Shown in pieces: positions 27,216 to 60,323 of a DNA stretch of 64,000 nt. A program made the position numbers and the translations under genes. The stretch is from the NCBI RefSeq assembly GCF_058153355.1, contig NZ_CM177019.1. One strand, 5' to 3'. A model generated the notes under the pieces. It was not told the DNA's origin. It saw nothing but the letters and a program-made list of their open reading frames with translations, and did no database searches. Every line of letters begins with the position of its first letter. Within the stretch, counting starts at the first letter, position 1.

Positions 27216-27248
27216 AGGCACACTTATCTGGGTGTGCCTCTTTTTTTT
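27216..27248 (+). terminator. Intrinsic-terminator-like hairpin plus T-run about 20 bp upstream of the recombinase start codon
   Basis: aggcacac-ttatctgg-gtgtgcct followed by c and eight T (27241-27248); plus-strand orientation, ending 20 nt before the ATG at 27269. Confidence 0.5.
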
Positions 27249-27268
27249 ACAACTGTACACGGTGGCGT

Positions 27269-28121: not shown

Positions 28122-28160
28122 AAATGTCAGGTTTTGTAGCAATGGCGTGGACGAGTCTGA

Positions 28161-28955: not shown

Positions 28956-29108
28956 CACAGCAGCGTTGTTACTACCCCCCACTGCGGCGCATACGGACTC
29001 GCTACAGTGTAGGAGCCAAAATATTTCTACTGCTCTGGGCTGCAGGATTGGGAGGCACGCTGTACAGCCTGTACAGCGTGCTGGCGTACTGACATCTGTG
29101 AGGGAAGG

Positions 29109-29870: not shown

Positions 29871-29911
29871 GTGGGAAATTGAAATTAGTTACCAGAATGG
29901 AGAATTTCTTC

Positions 29912-32209
29912 ATGAAAAACAGTAAGGCATTTTACCGCAGCGCATTAGCGACAGCTATTGTTATGGCTCTTTCTGCACCAGCATTCGCTGCTGATAACGC
30001 GGTATCAACTACACCGGTTAAGTTGGATAAAAATAAGACGATTCTGGATCAAGATGTTGTTATTAACGGTGATAACAAGATTACAGCCGTAACAATTGAA
30101 ACGTCAAATTCAGATAAAGATCTTAATGTTACTTTTGGCGGTCACGATATTACCGCCGCATCAACGGTAGACCAAGGTTTCGTTGAAGGTGTAAAAGTTA
30201 GCGGTGACAAAAATGTTGTGATTAATGCTACAGGCTCCACCATCACAGCTCAAGGCGAAGGCACCTATGTCCGGACTGCAATGGTCATTTCTTCTACTGG
30301 CGATGTTGTTGTTAATGGCGGTAATTTCGTTGCAAAAAATGAAAAAGGTAGTGCGACAGGGATATCTCTGGAAGGGGCCACGGGAAATAATGTCACGCTC
30401 AATGGCACAACCATAAACGCTCAAGGTAATAAGAGTTCCAGCAACGGCTCTACGGCAATTTTTGCTCAAAAGGGTAGCGTATCGAATGGTTTTAACGGTG
30501 ATGCAACCGACAACATTACCCTTGCTGGCTCAAACATTATTAATGGTCGGATTGAAACAATAGTTACTGCCGGGAATAAGACGGGAATTCATACAGTCAA
30601 CCTGAATATTAAGGATGGCTCAGTAATTGGGGCGGCTAATAATAAACAAACAATTTATGCCTCTGCTTCGGCACAAGGCGCAGGTTCAGCAACGCAAAAT
30701 TTAAATTTGTCTGTTGCTGATTCAACCATCTACTCTGATGTCCTGGCCCTTTCTGCAAGCGAGAATTCAGCCGGTACCACAACAAATGTAAATATGAACG
30801 TTGCCCGCTCTTACTGGGAAGGTAATGCTTATACGCTCAATAGCGGCGATAAAGCGGGTAGTGATCTGGATATAAATCTTTCCGATAGTTCAGTCTGGAA
30901 AGGCAAAGTTTCAGGGGCAGGAGATGCCAACGTATCTCTGCAAAACGGGTCTGTCTGGAATGTTACGGGTTCCTCAACTGTTGATGCTCTGGCAGTAAAA
31001 GACAGTACGGTTAATATCACTAAGGCTACAGTCAATACTGGCACGTTTGCTTCTCAAAACGGCACTCTGATTGTTGATGCCTCTTCTGAAAACACTCTGG
31101 ATATCAGCGGTAAAGCGAGCGGTGACTTGCGTGTTTACAGTGCGGGTTCATTGGATCTTATCAATGAACAAACGGCATTTATTTCTACCGGCAAAGACAG
31201 CACTCTAAAAGCCACAGGCACAACGGAAGGTGGTCTGTATCAATATGACCTGACACAGGGAGCTGATGGTAACTTTTATTTCGTAAAAAACACGCATAAA
31301 GCATCCAACGCCAGCTCCGTGATTCAGGCAATGGCAGCTGCTCCGGCTAACGTCGCTAATCTGCAGGCTGACACGCTCTCCGCCCGTCAGGATGCTGTCC
31401 GTCTGAGCGAAAATGACGAGGGTGGCGTATGGATTCAGTACTTTGGCGGTAAACAGAAACATACCACCGCAGGAAATGCATCCTATGACCTGGATGTAAA
31501 CGGTGTAATGCTGGGTGGTGATACCCGCTTCATGACTGAAGATGGTAGCTGGCTGGCCGGTGTGGCGATGTCTTCTGCGAAAGGTGACATGACCACCATG
31601 CAGAGCAAAGGTGACACTGAAGGTTACAGCTTCCACGCTTACCTGAGCCGCCAGTATAACAACGGTATCTTCATTGATACTGCTGCACAGTTTGGTCATT
31701 ACAGCAACACGGCAGATGTTCGCCTGATGAATGGTGGCGGTACCATCAAAGCTGACTTTAACACCAATGGTTTCGGTGCGATGGTTAAAGGTGGTTACAC
31801 CTGGGAAGACGGTAATGGCCTGTTTATTCAGCCATATGCCAAACTGTCTGCTCTGACTCTGGAAGGTGTGGATTATCAGCTCAACGGCGTGGACGTTCAT
31901 TCTGACAGCTATAACTCTGTGCTGGGTGAGGCCGGTACGCGCGTGGGTTATGACTTCGCTGTGGGCAACGCGACCGTTAAACCTTATTTAAATCTGGCCG
32001 CACTGAACGAATTCTCTGATGGCAACAAAGTCCGTCTGAGTGATGAGTCTGTCAATGCCAGCATTGACGGTGCAGCATTCCGCGTGGGTGCAGGTGTACA
32101 GGCTGATATCACCAAAAACATGGGAGCATATGCAAGCCTTGACTACACCAAAGGTGACGACATTGAGAACCCGCTACAGGGTGTAGTTGGTATCAATGTG
32201 ACCTGGTAA
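29912..32209 (+). CDS. upaE: Autotransporter adhesin (type Va secretion; UpaE-like)
   Basis: Signal peptide (MKNSKAFYRSALATAIVMALSAPAFAADN), Thr/Ser/Asn-rich repetitive passenger, C-terminal beta-barrel translocator ending ..GVVGINVTW. The symbol is assigned from locus context. Confidence 0.7.
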   Translation: MKNSKAFYRSALATAIVMALSAPAFAADNAVSTTPVKLDKNKTILDQDVVINGDNKITAVTIETSNSDKDLNVTFGGHDITAASTVDQGFVEGVKVSGDKNVVINATGSTITAQGEGTYVRTAMVISSTGDVVVNGGNFVAKNEKGSATGISLEGATGNNVTLNGTTINAQGNKSSSNGSTAIFAQKGSVSNGFNGDATDNITLAGSNIINGRIETIVTAGNKTGIHTVNLNIKDGSVIGAANNKQTIYASASAQGAGSATQNLNLSVADSTIYSDVLALSASENSAGTTTNVNMNVARSYWEGNAYTLNSGDKAGSDLDINLSDSSVWKGKVSGAGDANVSLQNGSVWNVTGSSTVDALAVKDSTVNITKATVNTGTFASQNGTLIVDASSENTLDISGKASGDLRVYSAGSLDLINEQTAFISTGKDSTLKATGTTEGGLYQYDLTQGADGNFYFVKNTHKASNASSVIQAMAAAPANVANLQADTLSARQDAVRLSENDEGGVWIQYFGGKQKHTTAGNASYDLDVNGVMLGGDTRFMTEDGSWLAGVAMSSAKGDMTTMQSKGDTEGYSFHAYLSRQYNNGIFIDTAAQFGHYSNTADVRLMNGGGTIKADFNTNGFGAMVKGGYTWEDGNGLFIQPYAKLSALTLEGVDYQLNGVDVHSDSYNSVLGEAGTRVGYDFAVGNATVKPYLNLAALNEFSDGNKVRLSDESVNASIDGAAFRVGAGVQADITKNMGAYASLDYTKGDDIENPLQGVVGINVTW

Positions 32210-32247
32210 GAATAAAGCAGTCGGTTCCCCTGTCGACTGTTATACCC

Positions 32248-32276
32248 CCTGCAGGCAGCAGTATGCTGCCTGCAGG
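32248..32276 (+). terminator. Strong hairpin downstream of the autotransporter gene
   Basis: 12-bp perfect stem cctgcaggcagc / gctgcctgcagg with a 5-nt loop, 39 bp after the stop; no clear T-run. Confidence 0.4.
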
Positions 32277-32392
32277 CTATAAATATCCAGTATTCATGAT
32301 GCTGGCTTTTTGCTGATATTTACCCTGAACATTCCTGATACAGACTATTAATACAACCTTATCTGCGACAGATTTCATTTTCTGGATATATT

Positions 32393-39078: not shown

Positions 39079-39186
39079 ACTCAAAATCAGACGCCAGGAC
39101 AAATATTCTGGCGTCTCAGAGAAAAGAATCTTATTAATTCCTTGTTATTATATAACTTCTTAATCACTTCATTGATGGTATTTTAT

Positions 39187-39429
39187 ATGTTTAAAAAACC
39201 TGTTTTATTTGCAACACTATTATCTGGCGTTATGGCATTTTCCACCAATGCAGATGATAAAATAATTCTGAAACATATCAGCGTCTCGTCAGTATCAGCA
39301 TCAGCATCACCGACAGTTCTGGAGGATGCCATTGCTGATATAGCCAGAAAATATAATGCTTCATCCTGGAAAGTCACATCGATGCGAATTGATAATAATT
39401 CAACCGCAACAGCAGTATTGTATAAATAA
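39187..39429 (+). CDS. rclB: Small periplasmic DUF1471-family protein RclB (YkgI)
   Basis: About 80 aa from MFKKPVLFATLLSGVMAFSTNA (signal peptide); start codon choice uncertain within ORF 39142..39429. Confidence 0.7.
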   Translation: MFKKPVLFATLLSGVMAFSTNADDKIILKHISVSSVSASASPTVLEDAIADIARKYNASSWKVTSMRIDNNSTATAVLYK

Positions 39430-39440
39430 GGATGTTCACA

Positions 39441-40034
39441 ATGGAAAAATACCTGCACCTGTTAAGTCGGGGAGATAAAATTGGCCTGACATTGATTCGT
39501 CTGAGTATTGCGATTGTTTTTATGTGGATTGGGTTATTAAAGTTTGTCCCTTACGAGGCAGACAGCATTACACCATTCGTCGCAAACAGTCCACTAATGT
39601 CGTTCTTTTATGAACACCCGGAAGACTATAAACAGTATCTGACTCACGAAGGCGAATACAAACCAGAAGCAAGGGCATGGCAATCGGCCAATAATACCTA
39701 TGGTTTTTCCAACGGTCTTGGCGTCGTGGAGGTGATTATTGCTCTGCTGGTTTTGGCTAATCCTGTCAATCGCTGGTTAGGTTTATTGGGAGGGCTGATG
39801 GCATTTACCACACCGTTGGTAACACTCTCATTTTTAATCACCACCCCGGAGGCATGGGTACCCGCATTGGGTGACGCTCATCATGGTTTCCCTTATTTAT
39901 CTGGTGCTGGTCGCCTGGTATTGAAAGATACTCTGATGCTGGCAGGTGCTGTCATGATAATGGCAGATTCGGCGCGGGATATTCTTAAACAACGCAGTAA
40001 TGAATCCAGTTCAACGTTAAAAACTGAATATTGA
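39441..40034 (+). CDS. rclC: Inner-membrane DUF417 protein RclC (YkgB)
   Basis: About 197 aa from MEKYLHLL; hydrophobic helices; synteny. Confidence 0.8.
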   Translation: MEKYLHLLSRGDKIGLTLIRLSIAIVFMWIGLLKFVPYEADSITPFVANSPLMSFFYEHPEDYKQYLTHEGEYKPEARAWQSANNTYGFSNGLGVVEVIIALLVLANPVNRWLGLLGGLMAFTTPLVTLSFLITTPEAWVPALGDAHHGFPYLSGAGRLVLKDTLMLAGAVMIMADSARDILKQRSNESSSTLKTEY

Positions 40035-40067
40035 TAATCCGAACACTGTCTGTTGTTCACTTTTTCA

Positions 40068-40105
40068 GGCGTCAGGCTCCCTTTCTGATGATGAAGCCTG
40101 ACGCC
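40068..40105. terminator. Hairpin between convergent rclC and an aldo-keto reductase gene
   Basis: 11-bp stem ggcgtcaggct / agcctgacgcc with a 16-nt loop, preceded by a T5 tract; could be REP-like rather than a terminator. Confidence 0.4.
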
Positions 40106-40193
40106 ATATTACCGGAGATATGACAGAGTGAAGATCAATATCACTCCCCTGTTAAAAGATTCTTGTCGTCTCAGGTAAAATAAGTGATTAATA

Positions 40194-41277: not shown

Positions 41278-42168
41278 GTGCGATATGACAAAGAATTAAC
41301 GGAGAATGTGATGATCAGGCAGAAGATTCTACAGCAGCTCCTGGAGTGGATTGAGTGCAATCTTGAGCACCCTATTTCAATCGAAGATATCGCACAGAAA
41401 TCTGGCTACAGCAGACGCAACATCCAGCTTCTGTTCCGAAATTTCATGCATGTACCTTTGGGAGAATACATTCGCAAACGAAGGCTTTGTCGCGCCGCCA
41501 TTCTTGTCCGGCTCACCGCGAAATCTATGCTTGATATTGCACTCTCTTTGCATTTTGATTCACAGCAGTCATTCAGCCGCGAATTTAAAAAGTTATTCGG
41601 CTGCTCTCCCCGTGAATACCGCCACCGTGATTATTGGGATCTCGCAAATATCTTCCCTTCTTTTTTAATACGTCAACAGCAAAAGACGGAGTGTAGATTA
41701 GTCAACTTTCCTGAGACGCCTATTTTTGGCAATTCATTTAAATATGATATTGAAGTGTCGAATAAATCACCGGATGAAGAAGTCAAACTGCGACGTCATC
41801 ATTTAGCCAGATGTATGAAGAATTTTAAGACGGATATCTATTTCGTCTCCACGTTCGAACCGTCAACAAAATCGGTCGATTTGCTCACAGTTGAAACTTT
41901 TGCCGGTACGGTATGCAAACAAACCGATTCAGAGATGTCGAAAGAGTGGACAATTAACCGAGGACTGTATGCCTCTTTCCGCTATGAAGGTGAGTGGGAG
42001 CACTACCCTGAATGGGCGCGAAACCTCTATCTGATGGAATTACCTGCCAGGGGGTTAGCCAGAGTGAACGGCAGTGATATTGAGCGATTTTATTACAATG
42101 AAGATTTCGTAGAAAAGGATAGCAATGATGTTGTTTGCGAAATATTTATCCCTGTTCGTCCGGTTTAG
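41278..42168 (+). CDS. ykgA: AraC-family regulator with GyrI-like effector domain (YkgA-like)
   Basis: AraC-type HTH in the N-terminal half (ISIEDIAQKSGYSRRNIQLLFRNF, FKKLFGCSPREYRH) plus C-terminal domain; start may be the internal MIRQKIL. Confidence 0.7.
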   Translation: MRYDKELTENVMIRQKILQQLLEWIECNLEHPISIEDIAQKSGYSRRNIQLLFRNFMHVPLGEYIRKRRLCRAAILVRLTAKSMLDIALSLHFDSQQSFSREFKKLFGCSPREYRHRDYWDLANIFPSFLIRQQQKTECRLVNFPETPIFGNSFKYDIEVSNKSPDEEVKLRRHHLARCMKNFKTDIYFVSTFEPSTKSVDLLTVETFAGTVCKQTDSEMSKEWTINRGLYASFRYEGEWEHYPEWARNLYLMELPARGLARVNGSDIERFYYNEDFVEKDSNDVVCEIFIPVRPV

Positions 42169-42288: not shown

Positions 42289-45200
42289 TTATTTCATCGC
42301 CTCCTCGCCCGTTGCCGTATTGGCATCCACCGCGGTAATGGTCACTGGCTTCATTTCGTACCCGCCATAGGTCAGGGCGTTAAATGTGAACGTATAGACA
42401 CCAGGCTTGCTGGTACTAAATGTACGCGTGATTTTTCCGCTCACGAAATGGTCATTTTTCGACGGCAGGAACTGATAATCCTTCTCCGTCACCCCTTCCG
42501 GCGTCTGAATGTCGACCCACATATTCCCGCCAACGGGGTTATTTGCCGACATCAGGGTCACCTCCAGCTTCGCAGTCGATTTCCCATCCGCCACCAGCGA
42601 AGGCACATTAGATGATGCGGTGAGCTGCGCGTTTTTATCATCCGCGACGAATTTAGCTTCGGCGGTTTTCGTTGATACCTGACCGTTGTTCTGACTCACT
42701 TGCGCCGTGAGTGTATATGTCGCCGCAACAGTCGTGGTGGCGGTGAAAATAGCCTGCCCTTGCTCATTCGTTGTCGCAGTGCCATTCGGTTCCAGGTTTA
42801 ACGAAGCCGGGCTGGCGGTCAGCGTCACTTCGCTATCTTTCACCAAATTCTTATTGGCATCAGTCACCGTAACTTTATACGTTTGTTTGGCTTTGCCGTC
42901 CGCCAGTGCATAGTTGCCAATCACCTCAATACTGGAGACGGTTGCGGTAGCCTTATCGGCTACAAACGTTATAGTCTGCGTATTCGAAGGCTGGCTATTC
43001 CCTGCCGATGCCGTGATCTCATACGTTCCGGCAGTCACTGAAACCACCTGCAACTCTGCTTTCCCCTCATCGTTGGCTTTCACCCAGACATTATCGCCAG
43101 TAAGCGGCTTGACACCCCGGGGCAGATTAAATGTCACCAGAGTTCCTGGAACAGGGTTACCGTTTTTATCCTCAACGGTCGCCGTCAGCGTAAAGGCATC
43201 TTTGCCGTTTGCCACTTTTTGAACGGCGGTGTCTACCTGCAGGTTTGCCTGACCGGTGCTGGCATCCGCGTTGAATTTCACCGTGACCGTCTTCTGAGAG
43301 TTTTTCACCGCGGCCGCGATTTCAAGTTCCCCTGCAACGGTTGATATCAACTCAATATCCGCTTTACCTGCCGCATTGGTTGTTACTGTATTCCCCGTCT
43401 TGCTAGTCACACCCTGCGGTAAAGTCAGCGTAACTTCTTGCCCCTGCAACGGGTTACCATAGCTGTCCACGACGGTCAGGGTTACCTGGTTAGCAGACTG
43501 TCCATTTGCCAGTTGGTTATTCACCTTCACCGCCATATCACTGATCACTGCCCGGGAAGCGTCGCCTGCAACATTCAGCACCAATGGCTGAGCAACGGCA
43601 TTTTGGCCGTTCACGCGTGGCATGACAGACAACTGACCTGCAGCCGATCCCAGCGTTAAGGTCGCCACGTAGACCCCATTACCTTTCTCTGTCCAGTTTC
43701 CTGCTGAAGGACGCTCACTCCCCGTGCTGGCGGCACCGCTAAACACGGGTGCATCGAGTTTCAGGTTACTAACAGGGTTGCCATACGCATCCTTCACGGT
43801 GAAGGTAAGTTCCGTCGTCGTTTTAACCGTTGGAGTCTTATTGTCCGCAACAAGCGTAGAGTTCGCTGATGACATCTCCCCGGCGATGACCGTCAACTGC
43901 GCGGCTTCGGTGGCTGCTGGCTGGCCGTTGAAGAGCGGCATGACACGAAGCTCGCCCGTCTTTCCGCCTGTGGTCAACGTAGCAACATAGGAACCGTCAC
44001 CTTTTTCGGTCCAACTGGAAATAGTCGCCCCTTCAGAGGCGGTCCCCGTCAAACTTGCCGACAACGAAAGACCACTGATAGCGTTGCCATGCGCATCTTT
44101 CGCCACCAGCGTCACGGTTGTGCTTTCGCCTGCTTTTACGCGATCTGCGGCTACAGACACTGTCGACTGGCCTGAAGATAACGCATCAGCCACCACGGTT
44201 ACTTTTGCCGCGTTTGCTGCCGCATCCTGTCCATTTAACTTCGGCATAACTTCTAATTCACCCGCCGTAGAGCCGAGAGTAATCTGCGCAGTCCACGTCC
44301 CATCACCATTATTTGTCCAGCCAGATGCCGTAGAACCTGCAGCGGCTGCGCCCGATAATGACGGCGCTTCCGGCGTGAGGCTGGTCACAGGGTTGTCATA
44401 GGCATCTTTTGCCGACCAGATTGCCGTAACTGTACCGCCAACCACCGGTTTATCCGGATTCAGGGCGATGGTCGAATGTGATGCATCAAGCGGCCCGGCG
44501 ACAAATTTCAGCGTTTGTTGTAATGTGCCCAGCTGATACTGCTCGCTGAAGGCACGCACAACAACGTTTCCGGCACGGGTCGAAGAAACCGTGGCGCTGT
44601 AAACCCCGGGTTTTATTTCCGAAATGGCACCAACGGTAACACCATTAGTGTCTTGCGGAACAAGTCGCAGGCGGCTGGCTTCTCCCGTCACCGGATTACC
44701 CTCGGAGTCCACCGCAGTCAGCGTCAGCGTGTAGGCTTGCTGACCATCAGCAACCACGTCACCTGACGGCTCGTTAGCGCTCAGGGGGGAGTTTGCCACA
44801 TCCATCATCGTGGCCCGCAGTTCTGCAGTGACGGTTTTGCTCATGCCATCAACGCTAACAGTAATCGTTGCCTCACCTGACTGCGTTCCGGTCGTAAAGA
44901 CAGACTGGTACACCCCTGCTTCAGTTTCGGTGAACTCACCCAGTGTGGGTTTTGCCTGTGATTTAGTGGCCTTCAGGGTACGAGTCACAATATTTCCAGC
45001 CGGTTTGAAGGATAGTTCAGTCTTGATCTGATCTTTCATGCCCTTGACTGGCTGGCCCGCTGCGTCGCGCAGAGACAGCACCAGCGGCTTTTGCTCATTA
45101 CCGTTAGCAAGCATTTGAATACGGCTCTGACCGTCAAGCGTTAACGCCGTGCGATCGGCGCTCATACCAGCTCCGGTAATAACCACTTCTGTCTGCACTC

Positions 45201-46537
45201 GTTTCGAGGCATTGCCTTTGTTATCGTAGGCAACTGCTGAAATCGCATAATAATTGTCTTTGCCTGGACGGTAAGCCGGGAGCGTTACTTGCCACTGACT
45301 ACCCTGACCGGTAATTTTGCCACCTTCAGCCAGTAATGACGGCGCTTCCCACTGCACATTTTTCAGTCCGTGAGTTGCTTTGCTGACCACAAGCCCCAGG
45401 GGAAACCGTCTGACAGCCCTTGCCTTCAATACGCTCAGGAAGAGCAATACGGATCACTTCTGATTTGCGGTACTCAAGAATGATATTGTTATTACGCTCA
45501 ACCAGGTCATAGCGGCTGCCGGCCAGTACCCGACGCTCGCGAATGCTATCCGTATCGAGTTGTTTCTCCAGAGGTTCGCCAATTCGGTAGTTAACTTCCA
45601 GGCCAAAGCGAGTGTCATTCTCACCACTCTTGCCCTGCTTATGCCCGGCGCTCAGTGTCAGAAGAGGCACTGGCGTATAGGTTACCTCGGCAGAAATAGC
45701 ATGCGGGTCTTTCTGGCGTTTATCTTTGCCAAACAGCCCGACTTCATCGCCATAATACTGCTCATACATCAGGCTTGCGCCAAGCTGCGGCCAGGCGGGT
45801 AAATAGCCCTCAGCACGAATATCCCAGCCATTCGCCGGGCGTTCCTGATAATCCTCAACATCCGGCGATTTTTTCCAGCCAGAAGCCCGGATATAACCAT
45901 TGGCGCTCAGTTTCAAATAATCACGCCAGTATTCCGCACCAACACCAATGCGGGTATGACTACGGGATAAATCATGATCGATAAAAGTATTCACCCCCGC
46001 CATCCAGTCATTTCCTGAAAAATGACGCCAGCCAAAACCAATATTTGACTGAGTACGATCGTCGGTACGATGTATTGCCCCCTGAGTGAACAACATATTT
46101 GTCGGCGTGTCATAAATCGGATAAAGCATTTCCAGCGAAGAGTCCTTCAGCGAGAAATTTTTATCGACATTCAGTTTGACGCGCGCAGTACCGTATTTCC
46201 CGAGCCACTCCTGTATTTCCTGGTTAGCTTTAACTGCGGCCATTCCGGTAATAAAGTTACGTGTCGCATCGCTATCTGGCTGACTGCTTAAAAATGTCCC
46301 GGCATTTGCGGCAAACGACGCGACATTTTTCTCCACATTATTATCAGCAGCTACCGTGGTATTTTCCATGCTCAGCCGTGGCTGAACCGCATGCTGCGCG
46401 CGTGCTGCCATTACTGGGGTAAAGGTGACAGCGAGTGGAAAAAGAACCTGAACAGAGATATTTGCCCACGCCACGCAGCGGGCCAGAACTGAATAACGAA
46501 ATCGTGGTTGTTTATGACCTGTTTTATAACGTGACAT
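42289..46537 (-). pseudogene. eaeH: Intimin/invasin-family adhesin EaeH (FdeC-like) split by a frameshift into two overlapping ORFs
   Basis: ORF 45326..46537 (403 aa: signal, LysM-like region, outer-membrane beta-barrel) and ORF 42289..45447 (1052 aa of Big/Ig-like repeats) overlap by 122 nt in different frames. The overlap contains C4 and G4 runs at 45394-45402. Confidence 0.75.
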
Positions 46538-47087
46538 TGAGATAATTTCCTGATGAACGAATTAACGAACATAGGCAGACACAAATAATGGCGTCTGCTT
46601 GTCAGAAAAACCGGGGATTTCCCGGTTTCCTTTTCCGCAGAAAAGGAAATACCTTTATGTAAGAAAGTACACCGCCACCTAATATATCCAGTGCCTGTAG
46701 CCACTCATCAGGTGGTTGGGCGCGGGATTATATTTTTATTTATGGGTGAAAATTTAGCTTTTTGTGCAAGTCATTAAATAGATACCTAAGTTATATTTCT
46801 TACTCTGCGGACAGTGAATAATTCATTATTCAGAGTGAATAATAATGACCTGCTTTTAATTTACCACGATTGGAAATACGTCGAAGTAGGTATATACGCC
46901 AGGATAAACCGATATATTTTTTATGGATATTCATTTTCCTTCATCGGACTGTAAATTCCGGGGATATCGAACTTGCACGACTAATCTCAACCCTCAAACA
47001 GATTTATGAATTTTGTTCATAACCCCTGACAAATCCTGCCGTCTAATCGAGCTTTTCCCTTTACGTTATGCTTCTCATGAACGATAA

Positions 47088-49963
<2,876 letters not shown>

Positions 49964-50095
49964 TTAACCACATTATTAGTAACAATGATAATCTGGCTGT
50001 ATCGAAAATAATTCTAAACTTTCAGGAGATTTATTATGAATAAACGTATCCTCACGATTGCGCCATTCTTCTTACCGATATTCTGACACACATCA

Positions 50096-51022
50096 TTAAC
50101 TTTCTATTTTTACTCTTTTCTCCACCATAAAATCAATAAAAGCACGAACTTTAGAGGGCATTCTCACCCGTGATGAAACATAAATATAAAATCCAGGAAA
50201 TGAAACAGCCCAATCCTCAAGAATCGGCTGTAACTTGCCCGCATTGATATGTTCAGCGATTGCAAAATCCAGATGTTGAATGATACCCGTTCCATTCAGC
50301 GCCATTCGTATCATGCTTTCGTCATCATTAGAAATATACTTACCTGAAACCTCTATTTCGAACTCTTCATTACCCCCCACAACATTAGAAAACTCCCATG
50401 CAGAGAGTGCACCGCTACTTTTATGCCGCAACCGAAGGCAATTATGGTTACTCAGTTCCTGAGGCGTTTCAGGAATACCGTGTTCTTTTAAATAATCTGG
50501 CGATGCCACAGTAACCAGTTTAATAAGCGGAGAAACAGGAACGGCAGTCATATGCTCATCCAGTCCTTGCTCAAGACGTATGCCCACATCACAGCCGTCC
50601 GCAATAATGTTAGATAAACCGTCATCCATAATGAGTTCTATCTTTGTTTTGGGGTAACGAGTAAGAAACTCGCCAATATGAGGCTCAACAAGCATCCGTG
50701 CTGCAACACGGGAGGAATTTATTCTCAACAGGCCTGTAGGTTCAAGTTGGGTATCACCAACATCTTTCAAAGCATCATCAATTTGCCCCAAAGCCGACAC
50801 CAGCACTTCATACAGACGCTGTCCTTCCTCAGTAAGCGACATATTGCGGGTCGTACGGTATATCAGCTTGGTGTTAAGACGTTCCTCAAGAGATTTTAAA
50901 TTCTGGGACAATGCGGCCCGCGTAATACCCATTTCAGAAGCGGCTCTGGAAAAACTGCCGGCACGAACAATCAGCGCAAACCAGGCAAGAGAAGGCAAAA
51001 TTGAAGGCTCTATTTTCATCAT
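50096..51022 (-). CDS. LysR-family transcriptional regulator
   Basis: Start likely MMKIEPSIL (about 308 aa); LysR HTH (FALIVRAGSFSRAASEMGITRAALSQNLKSLEERL). Divergent from the hydrolase gene. Confidence 0.8.
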   Translation of the reverse strand: MMKIEPSILPSLAWFALIVRAGSFSRAASEMGITRAALSQNLKSLEERLNTKLIYRTTRNMSLTEEGQRLYEVLVSALGQIDDALKDVGDTQLEPTGLLRINSSRVAARMLVEPHIGEFLTRYPKTKIELIMDDGLSNIIADGCDVGIRLEQGLDEHMTAVPVSPLIKLVTVASPDYLKEHGIPETPQELSNHNCLRLRHKSSGALSAWEFSNVVGGNEEFEIEVSGKYISNDDESMIRMALNGTGIIQHLDFAIAEHINAGKLQPILEDWAVSFPGFYIYVSSRVRMPSKVRAFIDFMVEKRVKIES

Positions 51023-51178
51023 TGTAAACCTTAACTTAACACTGTGATAGATATTAGACCATTGATGATAACCAATACAAGTCATACTATTACGCCGTTC
51101 TCGATATGAACACAAATGCCAGTTGCGGATAATAGAAATGATATTTAAATCTGTTTAGGCAAATCCCTGGAGCTTGAA

Positions 51179-52099
51179 ATGAAAACGGTTTCGATAAAAC
51201 ACACTTACTGGGATATAGCTGCTGATATCTATTTCCCTGACGATTTTAATAGTGAAAAAAAGTATCCTGCCATTATCAGTGCCCATCCAATTGGAAGCTG
51301 CAAAGAACAGACATCGGGTAGTGTGTATGGTGCCGCCCTGGCAAAAGCTGGCTTTATCGTCATTGCTTTTGATGCCAGTTTTCAGGGAAGCAGCGGTGGA
51401 GAACCGCGTTATCTGGAAGATCCAACAATGCGAGTAAAAGACTTCAGCATTGTCGTTGATTACCTTACCACCTTACCTTACGTTGATGCCGGGCGTATTG
51501 GTGTACTGGGTATTTGTGGTGGAGGTGGATATGCCATTAATGCCGCAATGACAGAACGTCGGATTAAAGCCATTGGTACTGTCACGGGTGCTAACTACGG
51601 GCGTCTTATGCGTGAGGGATTTACAGCGTTTAATCCTATCGGAGCACTCGAAGCAATGGCGCAACAAAGAACAGACGAAGCTAACGGCGCAAAACTTCGC
51701 GTAGATGATTTGCTCCCTTCTTCTCCGGAAGCAGCTCTTGAAGCGGGATTAACAGAAATAGACCTTTTTGAAGCAACAGAATATTATCGTTCGCCACGAG
51801 GCTGTGCGCCTAATGGGGTAAATCGTTCGCTATTTTCACATCAGACTGTTGCCGTGGGCTGGGATGCTTTTCATCTTGCAGAAGTCCTGTTAACTCAACC
51901 ACTAATGGTTGTAGTGGGCGATAGAGTGGGCGCTTTTGGTGCCTATCGTGACGGCTGCGAAATTATTGGTCGTGCAGCCTCAAAACATAAAGAGTTGGTC
52001 GTGGTTGAAGGTTATTCACATTACGACCTGTATGATAAGCCAGAACCTGTGAAACAGGCGCTCGATAAATTAATTCCTTTTTACAAAACACATTTGTAA
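51179..52099 (+). CDS. Alpha/beta-hydrolase-fold protein (dienelactone hydrolase-like)
   Basis: 306 aa; nucleophile-elbow-like GxCxG (LGICGGGG) consistent with a Cys/Ser hydrolase. Confidence 0.65.
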   Translation: MKTVSIKHTYWDIAADIYFPDDFNSEKKYPAIISAHPIGSCKEQTSGSVYGAALAKAGFIVIAFDASFQGSSGGEPRYLEDPTMRVKDFSIVVDYLTTLPYVDAGRIGVLGICGGGGYAINAAMTERRIKAIGTVTGANYGRLMREGFTAFNPIGALEAMAQQRTDEANGAKLRVDDLLPSSPEAALEAGLTEIDLFEATEYYRSPRGCAPNGVNRSLFSHQTVAVGWDAFHLAEVLLTQPLMVVVGDRVGAFGAYRDGCEIIGRAASKHKELVVVEGYSHYDLYDKPEPVKQALDKLIPFYKTHL

Positions 52100-52107
52100 T
52101 AACCTTG

Positions 52108-52130
52108 CAGGGAGATTCATTATCTCCCTG
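52108..52130 (+). terminator. Hairpin after the hydrolase gene
   Basis: 9-bp stem cagggagat / atctccctg, 5-nt loop, 9 bp after the stop codon, followed by T-rich sequence. Confidence 0.5.
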
Positions 52131-52271
52131 AGATTTATCCTTTATTGACTACACGACAATAATAAAATTACTCAAAAAGAATTCTATTAAAGGAAAAAAG
52201 CATCAAAAAGTAGCAACTCAACTTATTAAGATTATACGCATTAAAATCAGATAAACATTTGAGGTATTGTT

Positions 52272-53414
52272 ATGATAAATAAACACCCATCATTGTTTTC
52301 TCCTTTTATGCTGACAGAAAAAATAAAGCTACGTAATCGTATCGTTATGGCCCCTATGACGACCTGGTCAGCTAATCCTGATGGAACCATCTCTGAGCAA
52401 GAACTCGAATTTTATAAACGTCGCTCACAAAATGTTGGTTTAGTAATAACAGGATGCACCTATGTCACGCCAAGCGGCATTGGGTTTACTCATGAATTTG
52501 CCGCATATGACGACCGTTTCATTAACAGCCTTGAAAAGTTAGCTGCTGCAGCCAAAAGTGGCGGTGCTCCGGCTATTTTGCAGATTTTCCACGCCGGTAA
52601 TAAAGCCATCCCGGAGCTTGTGCCAAATTACGATGTTATTAGTGCCAGCGCATCAAGCGTAAAATCTGGTGACTTTATGAAGAGAGTGGTACAAAGCAGG
52701 GAAATGACTGAAAACGAAATTCAGGAAACCATTAGAGCATTCGGAGATGTCACAAAAAGGGCGATTAAAGCAGGTTTTGATGGCGTTGAACTTCATGGTG
52801 CGCACGGATTCCTTCTGCAGAATTTCTTCTCCCCTCTATTTAACCAGCGTAATGACCGATGGGGAGGAGATCTTGAAGGACGTATGCGCTTCCCGCTGGC
52901 CGTATTACAGGAAGTAAAAAATGTAGTCTATGAATATGCGAAAAAGCCCTTTGCCATCGGTTACAGAATATCTCCTGAAGAATCTGTAACAGGGGGGCTG
53001 CGGATAGAGGATACTTATAAACTCCTTGATCGGCTCATTTCATCCGGTATTTCGTATATACATACCTCGCTGGTCAGTATTAACGATAGCTACCCTGTTG
53101 AGTCGCCAAATGGCCCCCGAACTATTGAATTGATTTTAAATCATATTGCAGGCAGAGTGCCGGTAATCGCCGCAGGTAAAATACGCACACCGTCTCAGGC
53201 TCAAGAAGCAATTTCCGCTGGCCTGCCACTTGTTGCGATCGGTAAAGGGCTGGTGATAAATCCAGAATGGGTGACTTTAGCTGAATCAGGTAGAAGTCAT
53301 GAAATTCAAACAGCCCTTAATCCACAACGCGTTCCTGAATTAACCATTCCGGATAAACTATGGGATCAAATTCAGGCATCGAAAGGAACTGGCTGGTTTC
53401 CGTTAATGGATTAA
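52272..53414 (+). CDS. Old-yellow-enzyme family NADH:flavin oxidoreductase (NemA-like ene-reductase)
   Basis: 380 aa; OYE motifs (VMAPMTT, GFDGVELHGAHGFLLQNFFSP). Confidence 0.8.
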   Translation: MINKHPSLFSPFMLTEKIKLRNRIVMAPMTTWSANPDGTISEQELEFYKRRSQNVGLVITGCTYVTPSGIGFTHEFAAYDDRFINSLEKLAAAAKSGGAPAILQIFHAGNKAIPELVPNYDVISASASSVKSGDFMKRVVQSREMTENEIQETIRAFGDVTKRAIKAGFDGVELHGAHGFLLQNFFSPLFNQRNDRWGGDLEGRMRFPLAVLQEVKNVVYEYAKKPFAIGYRISPEESVTGGLRIEDTYKLLDRLISSGISYIHTSLVSINDSYPVESPNGPRTIELILNHIAGRVPVIAAGKIRTPSQAQEAISAGLPLVAIGKGLVINPEWVTLAESGRSHEIQTALNPQRVPELTIPDKLWDQIQASKGTGWFPLMD

Positions 53415-53885
53415 ATATCTATTACTCTCCCGAGAGTAAAACTATCAAACCAATGAGTAACCGATACAGCCTCGCAAATTCTTTCAGATAATTAACCCGT
53501 CACTGCGGCACGTTCTCTCATAAGGCGTGCCTGCTGTGTAATCCAGTATGTATCCGGCATACTTGACGGTTTAATAGAACTCAATTCCTTTCCCAGGTTA
53601 CCAACAACGATATCTTGTATAACACCCCAGGAGATACGACATTATGATGAGATGAGGTATGCTCCTCAGCGCCAATCAGCGCCAGGGCTGGGCCAGTTTG
53701 AGATCAGACTCATTCCCGGACTGACTTCAGGCGACATATATCAATGACGTTGGGGCAATAAAAGATAGCCGATGTAATACATCTATTCAAATTTGTGATA
53801 CATGTCAAAAAATTGGTTGACCAAACTCGTTATTTATATAAGGGCACTTACGAAGTGCACTCTTTTTTAAAGCGAGGAAGTACCA

Positions 53886-53987
53886 ATGAAAGAGAATAAA
53901 GTACAGCAAATCAGTCATAAACTGATTAATATCGTTGTTTTTGTCGCAATTGTAGAATACGCCTATTTATTTCTCCATTTCTATTAA
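53886..53987 (+). CDS. ykgR: Small membrane protein YkgR (33 aa)
   Basis: Not in the ORF track (below 60 aa). ATG at 53886 preceded by gaggaag; encodes MKENKVQQISHKLINIVVFVAIVEYAYLFLHFY with one hydrophobic helix; position next to ykgM matches K-12. Confidence 0.65.
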   Translation: MKENKVQQISHKLINIVVFVAIVEYAYLFLHFY

Positions 53988-54321
53988 TAACGGCAATAAA
54001 CTGTTCACTTCAGTGATATTTAAAATATGCATCCTCTCCCTTTTTTTTAAGTAATTATTATATCCGTGGGAGAGGAATACACGCTGTCAGGTAATCAATC
54101 AAACTGCGATAAATCATCGGCCAGTAAAGTGGAGATAGCCTCCATTCTCGAAAAATTCATACTCTCAGCGAAACCATCATCAATCACTCATCCAGGCGTT
54201 TATGGGAGCGTCGCCAATGGCTGCTAACAATGCCAGACTTCCCCGTTGCCGAAATTCCACATACCACAAATGGTCACAGGGATTGGGTGTTGAAATGATC
54301 CGGATGAGCATGTATCTTTAC

Positions 54322-54341
54322 GGTTATGTTATAACATAACA
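54322..54341. promoter_or_regulatory. Zur box upstream of ykgM-ykgO
   Basis: Palindrome GGTTATGTTATAACATAACA about 10-30 bp upstream of the ykgM start; matches the Zur operator consensus core TGTTATA.TATAACA. Confidence 0.7.
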
Positions 54342-54351
54342 GGTAAAAATG

Positions 54352-54615
54352 ATGAAACCCAATATCCATCCTGAGTATCGTACTGTGGTGTTCCATGACA
54401 CCAGTGTTGATGAGTACTTTAAAATCGGCTCGACTATCAAAACAGACCGTGAGATTGAGCTGGATGGCGTAACGTATCCGTACGTGACAATTGATGTCTC
54501 TTCGAAATCGCACCCGTTCTATACAGGGAAGCTGAGAACAGTGGCATCAGAAGGAAATGTTGCACGGTTCACCCAACGTTTTGGTCGTTTTGTTAGCACG
54601 AAAAAGGGGGCGTGA
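54352..54615 (+). CDS. ykgM: Zinc-independent ribosomal protein L31 paralog (type B)
   Basis: 87 aa from [13 protein letters not shown]31 family without the CxxC zinc ribbon. Confidence 0.85.
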
Positions 54616-54755
54616 TGAAAGTCCTTAACTCTCTGCGTACCGCAAAAGAACGCCATCCAGACTGTCAGATTGTGAAGCGAAAAGGACGGCTGTATGTGAT
54701 TTGTAAATCTAATCCACGTTTTAAGGCCGTTCAGGGGCGTAAGAAAAAGCGTTGA
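54615..54755 (+). CDS. ykgO: Ribosomal protein L36 paralog (zinc-independent)
   Basis: Not in the ORF track. ATG at 54615 overlaps the ykgM stop; encodes [46 protein letters not shown] (46 aa), L36 family. Confidence 0.8.
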
Positions 54756-54789
54756 TTCATAATTCGCCGGATTAACGATATTTGTCTGA

Positions 54790-55017
54790 TTAATAATCAG
54801 ACCGGATTAATGTTGGTGTATTGATTACACCAACATTAATTTTCCTGGAAATATATTCTTTAAGTTCATTTAAAGCCAACTGCCTGACGTTTCTCTCCGA
54901 ATATTCCATTATATTAATGTTGATTTGTTGACCAACTTCGCCCCTGTATGCTGGTATCAACTCTCTTTTAGACTGAACAAGCCACTCCGCCCCCTCCCTT
55001 TGCGGAGCAGCCTGCAT
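54790..55017 (-). CDS. ykgL: Hypothetical 75-aa protein (YkgL-like); questionable gene
   Basis: 75-aa ORF at the position I recall for K-12 ykgL, but its C-terminal 12 codons are encoded by the perfect palindrome listed above. Confidence 0.35.
   Translation of the reverse strand: MQAAPQREGAEWLVQSKRELIPAYRGEVGQQININIMEYSERNVRQLALNELKEYISRKINVGVINTPTLIRSDY
54806..54843 (+). terminator. Perfect hairpin downstream of ykgM-ykgO
   Basis: 15-bp perfect stem attaatgttggtgta / tacaccaacattaat with a 5-nt loop followed by TTT; a second small palindrome tctgattaataatcaga lies just upstream at 54785-54801. Confidence 0.5.
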
Positions 55018-55772
55018 TTACACTCAAACTGTTAAGATGATAAATGTGGTAAATCTGTTGGTACTAACATAAAAACGTTTACGCCACAGGAACAGCCTGA
55101 TCCACCGGTAACCCCATCGCCGACGTTCGAGTGCCAGTTAGAGTAACGCGCACAGATGACTGCACGCAGTGCCCTGTCAAAGAGGCCATCGTTCCTGTGA
55201 CAGCTGGCAGCCTTCGTTTAACTTCACTTAATTTGGCTCTTGGGGGGCTTACCGAACAGATGACGTAGTCACACCTATTCAATTTTTCACCACTTATTGG
55301 AGTAAACACCCATAACCATTTTGTGCGGCATGTTAATCCATTAAAACACCTTATTGATTGTCAAATATTCTTTAATGATGACCAACAATAGTTTTATGCT
55401 CTATTTATTATCATTAAAACTTGTTTTTTTACTAGTCGAGCACAAAACGCATTAAGACTATTCCTAACACCTCAGGGCAAAGTTCCTGGCTAATATAAAA
55501 TGCAAGTAAGAATTGAACGTTATATTGCCAATAACCTTATGAAACTGAATGTCTTTTTCTTCTTATCAAAAAAGCAATATTTTCATTTTTAGTAAATATT
55601 GACTTAACCATGGAATTCCTTTTCTGTTCACATATTGACACTCATCAGGAAAAAAACATAAATTTAAGCCCAATCGAAAATAATTAAAACTTAATCTCGT
55701 TTAACCTATATTGATATGTGCTACGTATCTTATTTACTTCCGATTTACTAACAACACTGAATGTACCTGTAA

Positions 55773-56384
<612 letters not shown>

Positions 56385-56458
56385 ACTCCAGGCAAGTTAG
56401 TTTTAAAAAATGACTCACAGGGACATCATGTCCTCAATTTAACTCGGGAAGAAAAGCA

Positions 56459-57046
56459 ATGAAAAAAAAGGTTCTGGCAATAGCTCTGGTAACGGTGTTT
56501 ACCGGCATGGGTGTGGCGCAGGCTGCTGACGTAACAGCTCAGGCTGTAGCGACCTGGTCGGCAACAGCCAAAAAAGACACCACCAGTAAACTGGTGGTGA
56601 CGCCACTCGGTAGCCTGGCGTTCCAGTATGCCGAAGGCATTAAAGGTTTTAACTCACAGAAAGGTCTATTTGACGTGGCTATTGAGGGTGACTCAACGGC
56701 TACCGCCTTTAAACTGACCTCACGTCTTATCACCAACACCTTAACCCAGTTGGATACCTCAGGTTCCACACTGAATGTGGGCGTGGATTATAACGGCGCG
56801 GCAGTCGAAAAAACTGGCGATACCGTGATGATCGATACCGCCAACGGCGTACTGGGCGGCAACCTTAGCCCGCTGGCTAACGGCTACAATGCCAGCAATC
56901 GTACCACCGCACAGGATGGTTTCACCTTCTCCATCATCAGCGGTACCACCAATGGTACCACCGCAGTAACCGATTACAGCACTCTACCGGAAGGCATCTG
57001 GAGCGGCGACGTTAGCGTACAGTTCGACGCTACCTGGACCAGTTGA
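56459..57046 (+). CDS. ecpA: E. coli common pilus major subunit EcpA (MatB)
   Basis: 195 aa, signal peptide (..[10 protein letters not shown]), Thr/Gly-rich pilin. Confidence 0.85.
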
Positions 57047-57103
57047 TCTCTTTGATGTACCAGCAGGGGTAGCCCCCCTGCTTTATTCCTGGACGGAATT
57101 GTT

Positions 57104-57772
57104 ATGAAAAAGCACCTTCTGCCTCTCGCTCTGCTGTTTGCCGGAATATCTCCGGCCCAGGCGCTGGATGTCGGCGATATATCATCGTTTATGAACAGTG
57201 ACAGCAGCTCGCTGAGCAAAACAATCAAAAACAGTACCGACAGTGGTCGCCTCATCAATATCCGTCTCGAACGGCTCTCTTCACCGCTTGACGACGGGCA
57301 GGTTATCGCAATGGACAAGCCGGATGAGTTGCTACTCACTCCCGCCAGCTTGCTGCTACCCGCCCAAGCCAGCGAAGTGATCCGCTTCTTCTATAAGGGA
57401 CCAGCAGATGAAAAAGAGCGCTACTACCGCATTGTCTGGTTTGATCAGGCCCTCAGTGATGCGCAGCGCGATAATGCCAACCGCAGCGCTGTAGCCACAG
57501 CTTCCGCCCGCATCGGCACCATTCTGGTCGTCGCCCCCCGCCAGGCGAACTACCGCTTTCAGTACGCCAACGGCTCCCTGACAAATACAGGAAATGCGAC
57601 GCTGCGGATCCTCGCCTACGGCCCCTGCCTGAAAGCCGCCAATGGTAAGGAGTGTAAAGAGAACTACTACCTGATGCCGGGCAAGTCGCGTCGTTTTAAC
57701 CGCGTGGACACGGCGGATAACAAAGGACGGGTTGCACTTTGGCAGGGTGATAAGTTCATTCCCGTGAAATAG
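57104..57772 (+). CDS. ecpB: Pilus chaperone EcpB
   Basis: 222 aa with signal peptide; operon position. Confidence 0.8.
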
Positions 57773-57797
57773 ATAGCTGTGCAGATGGATAACGACA

Positions 57798-60323
57798 ATG
57801 CCTTTACGACGGTTCTCCCCAGGACTGAAAGCCCAGTTTGCCTTCGGCATGGTCTTTTTGTTCGTTCAGCCCGATGCCAGCGCTGCTGACATAAGCGCGC
57901 AGCAAATAGGTGGGGTGATTATTCCGCAGGCCTTCAGTCAGGCGCTTCAGGACGGCATGAGCGTCCCGCTCTATATTCATCTTGCCGGTAGCCAGGGTCG
58001 CCAGGACGATCAGCGAATCGGCAGCGCTTTTATCTGGTTGGATGATGGACAGTTACGCATCCGGAAAATACAGCTGGAAGAGAGTGAAGATAACGCCAGT
58101 GTCAGCGAACAAACTCGACAGCAGCTGATGGCTCTGGCGAACACCCCGTTCAATGAGGCCCTTACCATCCCCCTGACTGACAACGCGCAGTTGGATCTCA
58201 GCTTGCGCCAACTGCTGCTGCAGCTGGTGGTCAAGCGCGAAGCACTGGGCACCGTACTACGCTCACGTAGCGAAGACATCGGGCAATCCAGTGTTAACAC
58301 CCTCAGCAGTAACCTGAGCTATAACTTCGGCATCTATAACAACCAGTTGCGTAACGGCGGGAACAATACATCCAGCTATCTGTCGCTAAATAACGTGACA
58401 GCACTGCGCGAACATCATGTGGTACTCGACGGCTCGCTGTATGGGATCGGTAGCGGTCAACAGGACAGTGAATTATATAAAGCGATGTATGAACGCGATT
58501 TTGCTGGTCACCGATTTGCCGGTGGAATGCTCGACACCTGGAACTTGCAGTCCTTAGGGCCGATGACCGCCATTTCAGCAGGGAAGATTTACGGCCTTTC
58601 CTGGGGAAACCAGGCCAGCTCCACCATCTTCGACAGCAGCCAGTCGGCCACGCCAGTGATCGCCTTTTTACCTGCAGCGGGCGAAGTACATCTCACCCGT
58701 GATGGGCGGTTACTGAGCGTTCAGAACTTCACCATGGGCAATCATGAAGTGGATACCCGGGGTCTACCGTACGGTATTTACGATGTGGAAGTTGAGGTCA
58801 TCGTTAACGGTCGCGTGATTAGCAAACGCACCCAGCGGGTCAATAAGCTGTTTAGCCGGGGGCGCGGCGTCGGTGCGCCACTGGCGTGGCAAATATGGGG
58901 CGGTAACTTTCATATGGATCGCTGGTCGGAAAACGGGAAAAAGACGCGACCAGCTAAAGATAGCTGGCTAGCAGGTGCCTCGAGCTCCGGCTCACTGAGT
59001 ACGCTTAGCTGGGCGGCAACGGGATATGGATACGATAATCAGGCCGTGGGTGAAACCCGTCTGACGCTGCCGCTTGGGGGGGCGATCAACGTTAACCTGC
59101 AAAATATGCTGGCCAGTGACAGCTCATGGAGCAGCATCGGCAGCATCAGCGCCACTCTACCGGGAGGCTTTAGTTCGCTATGGGTTAATCAGGAAAAAAC
59201 CCGCATTGGCAATCAATTGCGACGTAGCGATGCCGACAACCGTGCAATCGGCGGCACACTCAACCTGAACTCACTGTGGTCGAAGCTGGGCACATTCAGC
59301 ATCAGCTACAATGATGACCGCCGTTACAACAGCCATTATTACACGGCAGATTACTATCAAAATGTCTACAGCGGTACCTTTGGTTCGCTTGGCCTGCGAG
59401 CCGGTATTCAGCGCTATAACAACGGCGACAGCAACGCCAATACAGGGAAATATATCGCTCTCGATCTCTCGCTACCACTGGGCAACTGGTTTAGCGCAGG
59501 GATGACTCATCAAAACGGCTACACCATGGCAAACCTGTCAGCACGCAAGCAGTTTGATGAAGGGACCATTCGCACTGTTGGTGCCAATCTGTCACGAGCC
59601 ATCTCCGGCGATACCGGTGATGACAAAACCCTCAGCGGTGGGGCGTATGCACAGTTCGACGCTCGTTACGCCAGCGGAACGCTGAACGTCAATAGCGCGG
59701 CGGACGGCTACGTCAATACCAACTTAACTGCCAATGGCAGCGTTGGCTGGCAGGGTAAAAACATTGCTGCCAGCGGGCGGACTGATGGCAACGCCGGGGT
59801 GATATTCAATACCGGGCTGGAGGACGACGGTCAGCTCAGCGCCAAAATCAACGGACGGATTTTCCCGCTTAACGGCAAGCGTAACTATCTCCCGCTCTCT
59901 CCGTATGGGAGATATGAGGTGGAGTTGCAGAACAGCAAAAACTCACTCGACAGCTACGATATCGTCAGCGGCCGCAAAAGCCATCTGACCCTCTATCCAG
60001 GCAATGTCGCCGTCATTGAGCCAGAGGTGAAGCAGATGGTTACCGTCTCCGGTCGTATCCGTGCAGAAGACGGCACACTGCTGGCTAACGCACGGATTAA
60101 CAACCATATCGGCCGAACCCGAACCGATGAAAACGGCGAGTTTGTCATGGACGTGGATAAGAAATACCCCACTATCGATTTTCGCTACAGTGGCAATAAA
60201 ACCTGCGAAGTGGCACTTGAACTCGACCAGGCGCGCGGTGCCGTCTGGGTCGGTGATGTGGTCTGCAGCGGCCTCTCATCGTGGGCGGCGGTGACGCAGA
60301 CAGGAGAAGAGAATGAGAGTTAA
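57798..60323 (+). CDS. ecpC: Outer-membrane usher EcpC
   Basis: 841 aa with signal peptide, large beta-rich protein; operon position. Confidence 0.85.

Follow-up and report, generated by a model that had tools for sequence, protein, structure and literature searches.

In the window, the 64-kb stretch of DNA analysed here, we detected the chromosomal gene fdeC (eaeH), which encodes an inverse-autotransporter (type Ve) adhesin of Escherichia coli. The feature matched is annotated as "fdeC: inverse autotransporter adhesin FdeC" (98.2% DNA identity over 100% of the query), and matches were identified in 5078 of the 5426 complete E. coli genomes. The neighbours of the gene are syntenic, with a gene for an AraC-type HTH regulator on one side and aldo/keto reductase genes on the other. 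A preliminary description of this DNA had proposed that fdeC is split by a frameshift into two overlapping open reading frames, and the ORF coordinates confirm this: ORF1 (403 aa) and ORF2 (1052 aa) are read in different frames and overlap by 122 nt (45326-45447; Table 1).

Table 1. Features of the fdeC locus, in window coordinates
Feature	Position	Strand	Details	Basis
ORF1 (5' ORF)	45326..46537	minus	403 aa, ATG start	
ORF2 (3' ORF)	42289..45447	minus	1052 aa, TTG start	
5' part of fdeC, true frame	45401..46537	minus	codons 1-379	ORF, Pfam, structure matches, collinearity
3' part of fdeC, true frame	42289..45399	minus	codons 380-1415 and stop	Pfam, 4e9l match
Frameshift site	45399..45402	minus	C4 (plus-strand GGGG), C3 in intact alleles	alignment
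Out-of-frame tail of ORF1	45326..45400	minus	24 codons, PGACGQQSNSRTEKCAVGSAVITG, and TGA stop at 45326-45328	translation, no FdeC counterpart
5' extension of ORF2	45403..45447	minus	TTG and 14 codons, MLFLSVLKARAVRRF	homology starts only at 45399
In-frame 6-nt deletion near the fdeC 3' end	42341..42351	minus	GTGACG	alignment; junction within these bases

The N-terminal beta-barrel and the Ig-like repeat passenger that had been assigned to the two ORFs are both borne out by Pfam. ORF1 carries the IAT_beta domain (PF11924, aa 76-350, E=4.3e-109), and for its residues 113-357 we obtained matches to the barrel structures of invasin (4e1t, E=4.6e-84) and intimin (4e1s). Its N-terminus, read from the sequence, is basic and continues into a hydrophobic stretch (approximately aa 31-42) followed by AARA; read in the true frame, the 5' part of the gene encodes this hydrophobic leader, the barrel and a post-barrel linker. 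In ORF2 we detected nine Invasin_D3 and five Big_1 stretches, which represent the C-terminal IgSF (Big) passenger; the crystallised fragment of FdeC (4e9l) is matched by residues 216-629 (E=3.8e-241). The LysM domain that the preliminary description placed in the N-terminal part was not recovered, as there was no LysM match to ORF1 in Pfam and none to its first 100 aa at E<=10. In LysM-bearing inverse autotransporters (intimin, YeeJ, IatC and IatD) this domain is periplasmic and lies N-terminal to the barrel, whereas the fdeC locus is without it; among the inverse autotransporters compared previously, LysM was reported only for YeeJ, IatC and IatD (PMC6714894).

Intact fdeC homologues do not share the two-ORF arrangement but are single CDSs of 4254 nt. 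Alignment to intact homologues, which had been suggested for finding the indel, located a single extra C that turns C3 into C4 at 45399-45402. The change from TTTCCCTGGGG in the intact alleles to TTTCCCCTGGGG on the minus strand of the window is the sole frame-breaking difference from the three intact alleles aligned. The C4 and G4 runs described at 45394-45402 are present (on the minus strand, C4 at 45402-45399 and G4 at 45397-45394), and the inserted nucleotide is one of the four bases of the C-run, at codon 379/380. Homology to intact FdeC follows frame -1 as far as 45395 (aa 1-381) and frame -2 from 45399 onwards (aa 380-1417). The frame of homology thus changes exactly at the C-run, and neither the final 24 codons of ORF1 nor the initial 15 codons of ORF2 correspond to any part of FdeC. 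The earlier impression that the overlap reads sensibly in both frames is therefore incorrect. The 5' extension of ORF2 is spurious, with the passenger frame read over the coding sequence of the barrel linker, and its TTG is not a real start. When one C is removed in silico, an ORF of 1415 aa without a stop is obtained that is 98.3% identical to WP_105288406.1. Barrel and passenger are restored to one polypeptide only by this removal; as the frame is broken at 45399-45402, the locus is a pseudogene of an FdeC/EaeH family member and not a functional member. The window allele also has an in-frame deletion that corresponds to one copy of a GTGAC direct repeat and removes two residues (Val-Thr); the 40-mer across its junction is contained in no complete E. 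coli genome.

A 28-mer with C3, used as the control for the C4 search, was identified in 4143 of the 5426 complete E. coli genomes, and the C4 28-mer in none of the 5426. A 71-mer across the site had no match at 100% identity in 4571 complete genomes, where the best matches were 70-nt spans with one gap, and a C4 30-mer had no match in the GTDB species representatives. The exact 403-aa product of ORF1 is present in a public protein collection and is encoded on three Logan contigs. The two places shown are the SRA runs SRR28786219 and SRR31441161, whose assemblies contain an identical gene pair (403 and 1022 aa). C4 is found both on a Logan contig that is identical to the window (100%) over 7818 nt (L007) and on one that differs from it by a single SNP, at window position 44787 (L006). 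The allele was assessed from assemblies, and since the window itself may have been assembled from one of these runs, the number of independent read sets is two and not three. The 90% cluster of the 403-aa product also contains other N-terminal FdeC fragments, which stop at differing positions and carry differing junk tails; these were read directly from the sequences, an identity-threshold script having placed the divergence points too early. Another cluster member of 403 aa (P0005) has wild-type sequence and is a plain partial, so the frameshift is not shared with it.

Three origins had been offered for the split: a real pseudogenising indel, a homopolymer sequencing error or a slipped-strand phase-variable site. 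We favour the first, since the C4 allele is repeated in the assemblies of two independent read sets, which indicates a real insertion that is heritable and stable. A sequencing or assembly error in a genome that is truly C3 with an intact fdeC would fit an indel that lies within a homopolymer and is common to no complete E. coli genome, but we consider it highly unlikely and rejected it. The two SRA runs, assembled independently, give the identical C4 and the identical 403-aa product, and one of these assemblies is one SNP off the window, so its consensus is not the same as that of the window. The run is also only 3-4 nt long, and consensus homopolymer errors are common only at lengths far above this. 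The Logan assemblies likewise repeat another frameshift private to the clone, in yahJ, so that single-base indels in the window assembly can be trusted. Frameshifts were detected only in fdeC and yahJ when 43 conserved CDSs were compared with a relative; the other conserved genes compared across the 64 kb have none, and these 43 CDSs give no sign of a genome-wide pattern of homopolymer errors. Among the same CDSs, one further gene (ASCH domain) is shortened by an IS66 insertion.

In the case of slipped-strand phase variation, the C/G tract would act as a contingency site by which FdeC is switched ON and OFF. Adhesin genes such as this one are often phase variable, and the indel lies in a C-run adjoining a G-run, much as in homopolymer contingency loci (e.g., adhesin genes of Neisseria and Haemophilus) an indel in a mononucleotide run turns off a surface adhesin. 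However, known contingency tracts are about 7 nt or longer, while the fdeC tract has 3-4 nt and the longest homopolymers of the whole gene are A6 and C6. Tract length also shows no polymorphism in the population (C3 in 4143 genomes, C4 in 0) or between the sister isolates, both of which are C4 although they are already one SNP apart, and the other fdeC truncations are at scattered, different positions and not at this tract. On tract length and population data, phase variation was rejected as extremely improbable. The two ORFs could also represent a functional split, comparable to ZirT with ZirS/ZirU, or be joined by a +1 ribosomal slip on CCU-GGG-G that gives some full-length FdeC. Two-partner systems on inverse-autotransporter barrels do exist, in which neighbouring genes code for the barrel protein and the Ig-like protein (PMC4943183), and in this respect ZirT with ZirS/ZirU and SinH/SinI resemble the fdeC arrangement. 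In those systems, however, the split is a conserved one and each partner is an exported protein in its own right (ZirS and ZirU are each exported separately), whereas the fdeC split is a one-base accident found in none of the 4143 or more other genomes, and thus not a conserved design. The downstream ORF is also without a leader: from the gene caller's GTG, the passenger ORF has no signal-peptide-like N-terminus (maximum 12-aa hydropathy 0.37). No Shine-Dalgarno-like context was found upstream of this GTG or of the ORF2 TTG, so that a recognisable ribosome-binding site is missing at both starts.

As for recoding, GGG-G would let tRNA-Gly re-pair in the +1 frame and yield near-wild-type FdeC with the change L380P. 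At +1 sites of the prfB type, a slippery codon is followed by a stop or hungry codon, an upstream stimulator is present and the arrangement is conserved across homologues. Unlike these, the C4/G4 site has no in-frame stop or rare "hungry" codon beside GGG-G and no conserved stimulator, and the extra base is absent from the other genomes searched. Given a non-conserved arrangement and a downstream ORF without leader, ribosome-binding site or slippery-site features, the two-partner and recoding readings were both rejected, and we regard them as having almost no chance of being correct. A leaky C4-T-G4, at which a +1 slip of tRNA-Gly or a rare reversion of C4 to C3 produces near-wild-type FdeC with L380P in a few cells, is just as remote; if true, the apparent pseudogene would be a low-level, stochastic reservoir of the adhesin.

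Inactivation of fdeC by a single-base insertion that is real, vertically inherited in a small clone, evolutionarily recent and not a switch is therefore, in our view, very probable. Replication slippage or a simple insertion error is the most likely cause. Translation from the native ATG would produce the leader, the barrel, the linker and 24 nonsense residues before the stop, and the Ig-like passenger, of roughly 1036 residues, would no longer be attached to the barrel. In inverse autotransporters (type Ve), the passenger is a C-terminal extension of the same chain and is threaded through its own barrel. With the passenger detached and the downstream ORF lacking a signal peptide or a credible start, the passenger part is predicted to be untranslated or not exportable, no adhesin would be displayed at the surface and the function would be lost. 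From the type Ve secretion mechanism, we infer a loss of surface FdeC in this clone; the remainder may be at most a barrel-only outer-membrane stub of about 44 kDa, compared with about 150 kDa for full-length FdeC. In vitro, expression of fdeC is repressed. The mutation is likely to be recent because the rest of fdeC is still fully open.

Intact FdeC (WP_105288406.1 from strain EC42405; ECOK1_0290 of Nesta et al. 2012; PDB 4E9L) occupies the same locus and has the same domain content, and the window allele differs from it by the extra C at codon 379/380 and by the private in-frame 6-nt deletion near the C-terminus. In K-12 (MG1655, W3110 and DH10B), eaeH/fdeC is a pseudogene of which only the N-terminal portion is encoded (PMC3324786), which indicates that the gene can be dispensed with and is decaying in some lineages; a complete fdeC gene was previously reported in only 84 of 126 complete genomes (67%) (PMC6714894). 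The same gene is thus inactivated to its N-terminal portion in K-12 and in the window. The window gene, however, is whole and open apart from one base, which points to an event that is independent of that in K-12 and more recent. Our best reading of the locus is an ordinary pseudogene that is private to the clone, the decay of fdeC as such being already documented.

For annotation, the locus should be treated as one frameshifted fdeC pseudogene and not as two genes, nor as a "barrel-only" protein and an "Ig-domain protein". Its importance beyond annotation is small. FdeC has been put forward as a vaccine antigen with broad conservation (PMC3324786), and clones that are gene-positive in PCR or presence tests but lack surface FdeC therefore bear on estimates of antigen coverage. 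In addition, the C4 allele offers a convenient single-base marker of an E. coli lineage that is otherwise poorly represented.

The E. coli inverse-autotransporter adhesin gene fdeC (eaeH) is present in the window as two overlapping open reading frames, ORF1 and ORF2, an arrangement given in the preliminary description and confirmed here by the ORF coordinates, the Pfam content and the annotation of the region in complete genomes ('fdeC: inverse autotransporter adhesin FdeC'). ORF1 encodes the inverse-autotransporter beta-barrel (PF11924, residues 76-350, E=4.3e-109) and has matches to the invasin and intimin barrel crystal structures; ORF2 encodes nine Invasin_D3 and five Big_1 Ig-like stretches, and this passenger part matches the FdeC fragment 4E9L (E=3.8e-241). 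The region was matched in 5078 of the 5426 complete RefSeq E. coli genomes, at a best identity of 98.2%. The LysM domain previously proposed for the N-terminal part was not detectable in the fdeC product. Goh et al. 2019 (PMC6714894), comparing E. coli inverse autotransporters, reported LysM for YeeJ, IatC and IatD only.

Features of the window discussed in the text
Feature	Coordinates	Strand	Description
ORF1	45326..46537	minus	403 aa, ATG start
ORF2	42289..45447	minus	1052 aa, TTG start
AraC-type regulator gene	41278-42168	+	downstream neighbour of fdeC, divergently oriented
IS66-family element	4898-7368		ORFs of 142, 115 and 523 aa; absent from Z0117EC0005
yahJ (amidohydrolase)	7961-9341	minus	+T near 8180, AATATA to AATTATA
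IS110-family transposase gene	10571-11551		Pfam DEDD_Tnp_IS110, Transposase_20
6-kb island	26197-32283		absent from Z0117EC0005, present in about 1925 complete genomes

The two ORFs share 122 nt (45326-45447), which each reads in its own frame; this overlap contains TTTCCCCTGGGG with the C4 (45402-45399) and G4 (45397-45394) runs noted before. In four intact comparators (EC42405, R32_14_1F, PCN033 and Z0117EC0005) fdeC is a single 4254-nt CDS, so that the split is not shared by intact homologues, and a MAFFT alignment of the window gene to three of them located only two length differences. The first changes TTTCCCTGGGG to TTTCCCCTGGGG by one extra C at 45399-45402. The second is an in-frame 6-nt deletion near 42346 (42341-42351), toward the 3' end of fdeC, which removes GTGACG (one copy of a GTGAC direct repeat) and with it Val-Thr; a 40-mer across its junction had no match in any complete E. 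coli genome, and it is a further private change in fdeC besides the extra C. With intact FdeC as the tblastn query, frame -1 accounts for residues 1-381, as far as 45395, and frame -2 for residues 380-1417, starting at 45399. Homology thus switches frame exactly at the C-run, contrary to the earlier impression that both frames are sensible across the overlap; the final 24 codons of ORF1 (PGACGQQSNSRTEKCAVGSAVITG) and the initial 15 codons of ORF2 (MLFLSVLKARAVRRF), which have no FdeC counterpart, are therefore out-of-frame read-through. Removal of one C in silico gave a single 1415-aa ORF without internal stops and with 98.3% identity to WP_105288406.1, the intact FdeC of EC42405.

A consensus error at such a short run (3-4 nt) would have to recur in separate read sets, which is very unlikely. 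The public protein collection includes the truncated 403-aa product in exactly this form, encoded on three Logan contigs; the two places listed come from the SRA runs SRR28786219 and SRR31441161. Contigs of both runs have C4 and the same called gene pair (403 aa and 1022 aa); the contig from SRR31441161 matches the window at 100% identity for 7818 nt, and the SRR28786219 contig differs by one SNP within the passenger-coding part (window 44787). Independent support for C4 is thus two read sets, judged from their assemblies, one of which may be the window's own source. Comparison of 43 conserved CDSs with the closest complete genome revealed frameshifts in fdeC and yahJ only, with one more gene cut by an IS, and no pattern of homopolymer errors. 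The yahJ frameshift, which leaves a 390-aa ORF and a 73-aa remainder, also argues against error, since it is likewise reproduced in Logan contigs (the exact 390-aa product occurs in SRR28786219 and one similar contig). None of 3178 complete E. coli genomes has its +T (the closest matches were 60-nt spans with one gap), and yahJ is a second clone-private pseudogene in the window.

Phase variation, with the fdeC C-run acting as an on/off switch, is likewise very unlikely. A 30-mer probe, every 28-mer of which spans C4, matched none of the 5426 complete E. coli genomes and was missing from the GTDB species representatives; the same probe with C3, used as a control, matched 4143 genomes, all with at least 99% identity. 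A 71-mer matched 4571 genomes, none identically, the best matches being 70-nt spans with one gap. Both related isolates carry C4, though one SNP apart. Known slipped-strand contingency loci have tracts well above the 3-4 nt of this run, and nowhere does the gene have a homopolymer longer than A6 or C6. The same 90% cluster contains further truncated N-terminal FdeC fragments, whose terminal junk tails differ in sequence and position (...LEY/TVIIGRS..., ...EGGK/LPVRVVSGK, ...TLPA/SRTHPSR, ...TLP/LIVQAK...), the mark of scattered gene decay and not of one switch site. A functional split or recoding appears highly improbable. Two-partner systems with an inverse-autotransporter barrel are known, such as ZirT with ZirS/ZirU (PMC4943183), whereas the fdeC split is a private one-base change, common to no other genome and without a partner leader: no ribosome-binding site is recognisable ahead of the downstream ORF, and its N-terminus from the gene caller's GTG, VQWEAPSLLAEGGK..., is no signal peptide. 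In principle tRNA-Gly could slip by +1 on GGG-G, but no stop or hungry codon adjoins GGG-G, and neither a stimulator nor conservation was found.

The locus is very probably best explained by insertion of one C into the C3 run at codon 379/380, likely by replication slippage, about 29 residues past the end of the barrel domain. The product from the native ATG would consist of leader, barrel, linker and 24 nonsense residues, with the passenger cut off from the barrel chain. In type Ve secretion the passenger follows the barrel C-terminally in one polypeptide and is exported through that barrel via a hairpin (see PMC4943183); since the frameshift detaches the passenger from the chain it must continue, the adhesin would be lost, leaving at most a barrel-only stub in the outer membrane. 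Polarity is no issue, given the orientation of the downstream regulator gene. The event is recent, given that the reading frame is otherwise open across its remaining 1415 codons and that only near-identical isolates carry the allele. Decay of fdeC is on record. According to Nesta et al. 2012 (PMC3324786), many pathogens and commensals have fdeC at full length, while K-12 strains have a shortened and disrupted pseudogene; in Goh et al. 2019 (PMC6714894), only 84 of 126 complete genomes had a complete gene. The window locus adds an independent case of inactivation in this known, dispensable adhesin gene; it is known in kind, with the C4 allele itself private to the clone.

The window is chromosomal E. 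coli DNA, with genes that extend from an AI-2-type sugar ABC transporter via yah, bet, ykg, rcl and fdeC as far as ecp and yagU. Across 17.5 kb (46538-64000), no complete genome exceeds about 98.7% identity to it, and the source lineage is therefore without a representative among them; near-identical sequences were found only in the Logan assemblies of the two SRA runs. Compared with Z0117EC0005, the window additionally contains the IS66- and IS110-family elements, an rclBC segment and the 6-kb island. The 115-aa and 523-aa ORFs of the IS66-family element, the two scanned, have TnpB_IS66 and DDE_Tnp_IS66 domains, and the element interrupts an ASCH-domain gene (98 of 136 aa left, at 7364-7660). 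The IS110-family gene lies within a 1.3-kb insertion (10378-11657) between yahI and yahG, adjoined by repeats of about 93 nt (11657-11900) with staggered multiple BLAST matches to the reference. The segment of about 1 kb at 39138-40155 is absent from Z0117EC0005; the syntenic locus of EC42405 has rclC and rclB there, and the Logan locus one SNP from the window has DUF417 and YdgH/BhsA-like genes. Strains appear to differ in the presence or absence of rclBC. Between a ykgR homologue and a flavin oxidoreductase gene, at 53675-53700, 10 nt are duplicated in tandem, CAGCGCCA(AT)CAGCGCCA. At 54843, ykgL has a 1-nt difference from the reference genome, which is annotated as frameshifted there, so it may be the window that has the intact ykgL.

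The island is the known ipbA(fimX)-hyxR-hyxA-hyxB locus, annotated in complete genomes as ipbA (tyrosine-type DNA invertase), hyxR (LuxR), hyxA and hyxB (autotransporter). An imperfect 33-nt inverted-repeat pair (27830-27862 and 28103-28135, 240 nt apart) spans the 3' end of the ipbA invertase gene and the region upstream of hyxR, which is where the known invertible hyxS switch (mentioned in PMC6083910) would be expected. Phase variation therefore probably does occur in the window, at an element that governs a LuxR regulator and an autotransporter by DNA inversion. This putative element is about 15 kb from fdeC and unrelated to its frameshift; if the repeats are the hyxS switch, the real phase-variable element of the window is there and not at fdeC.
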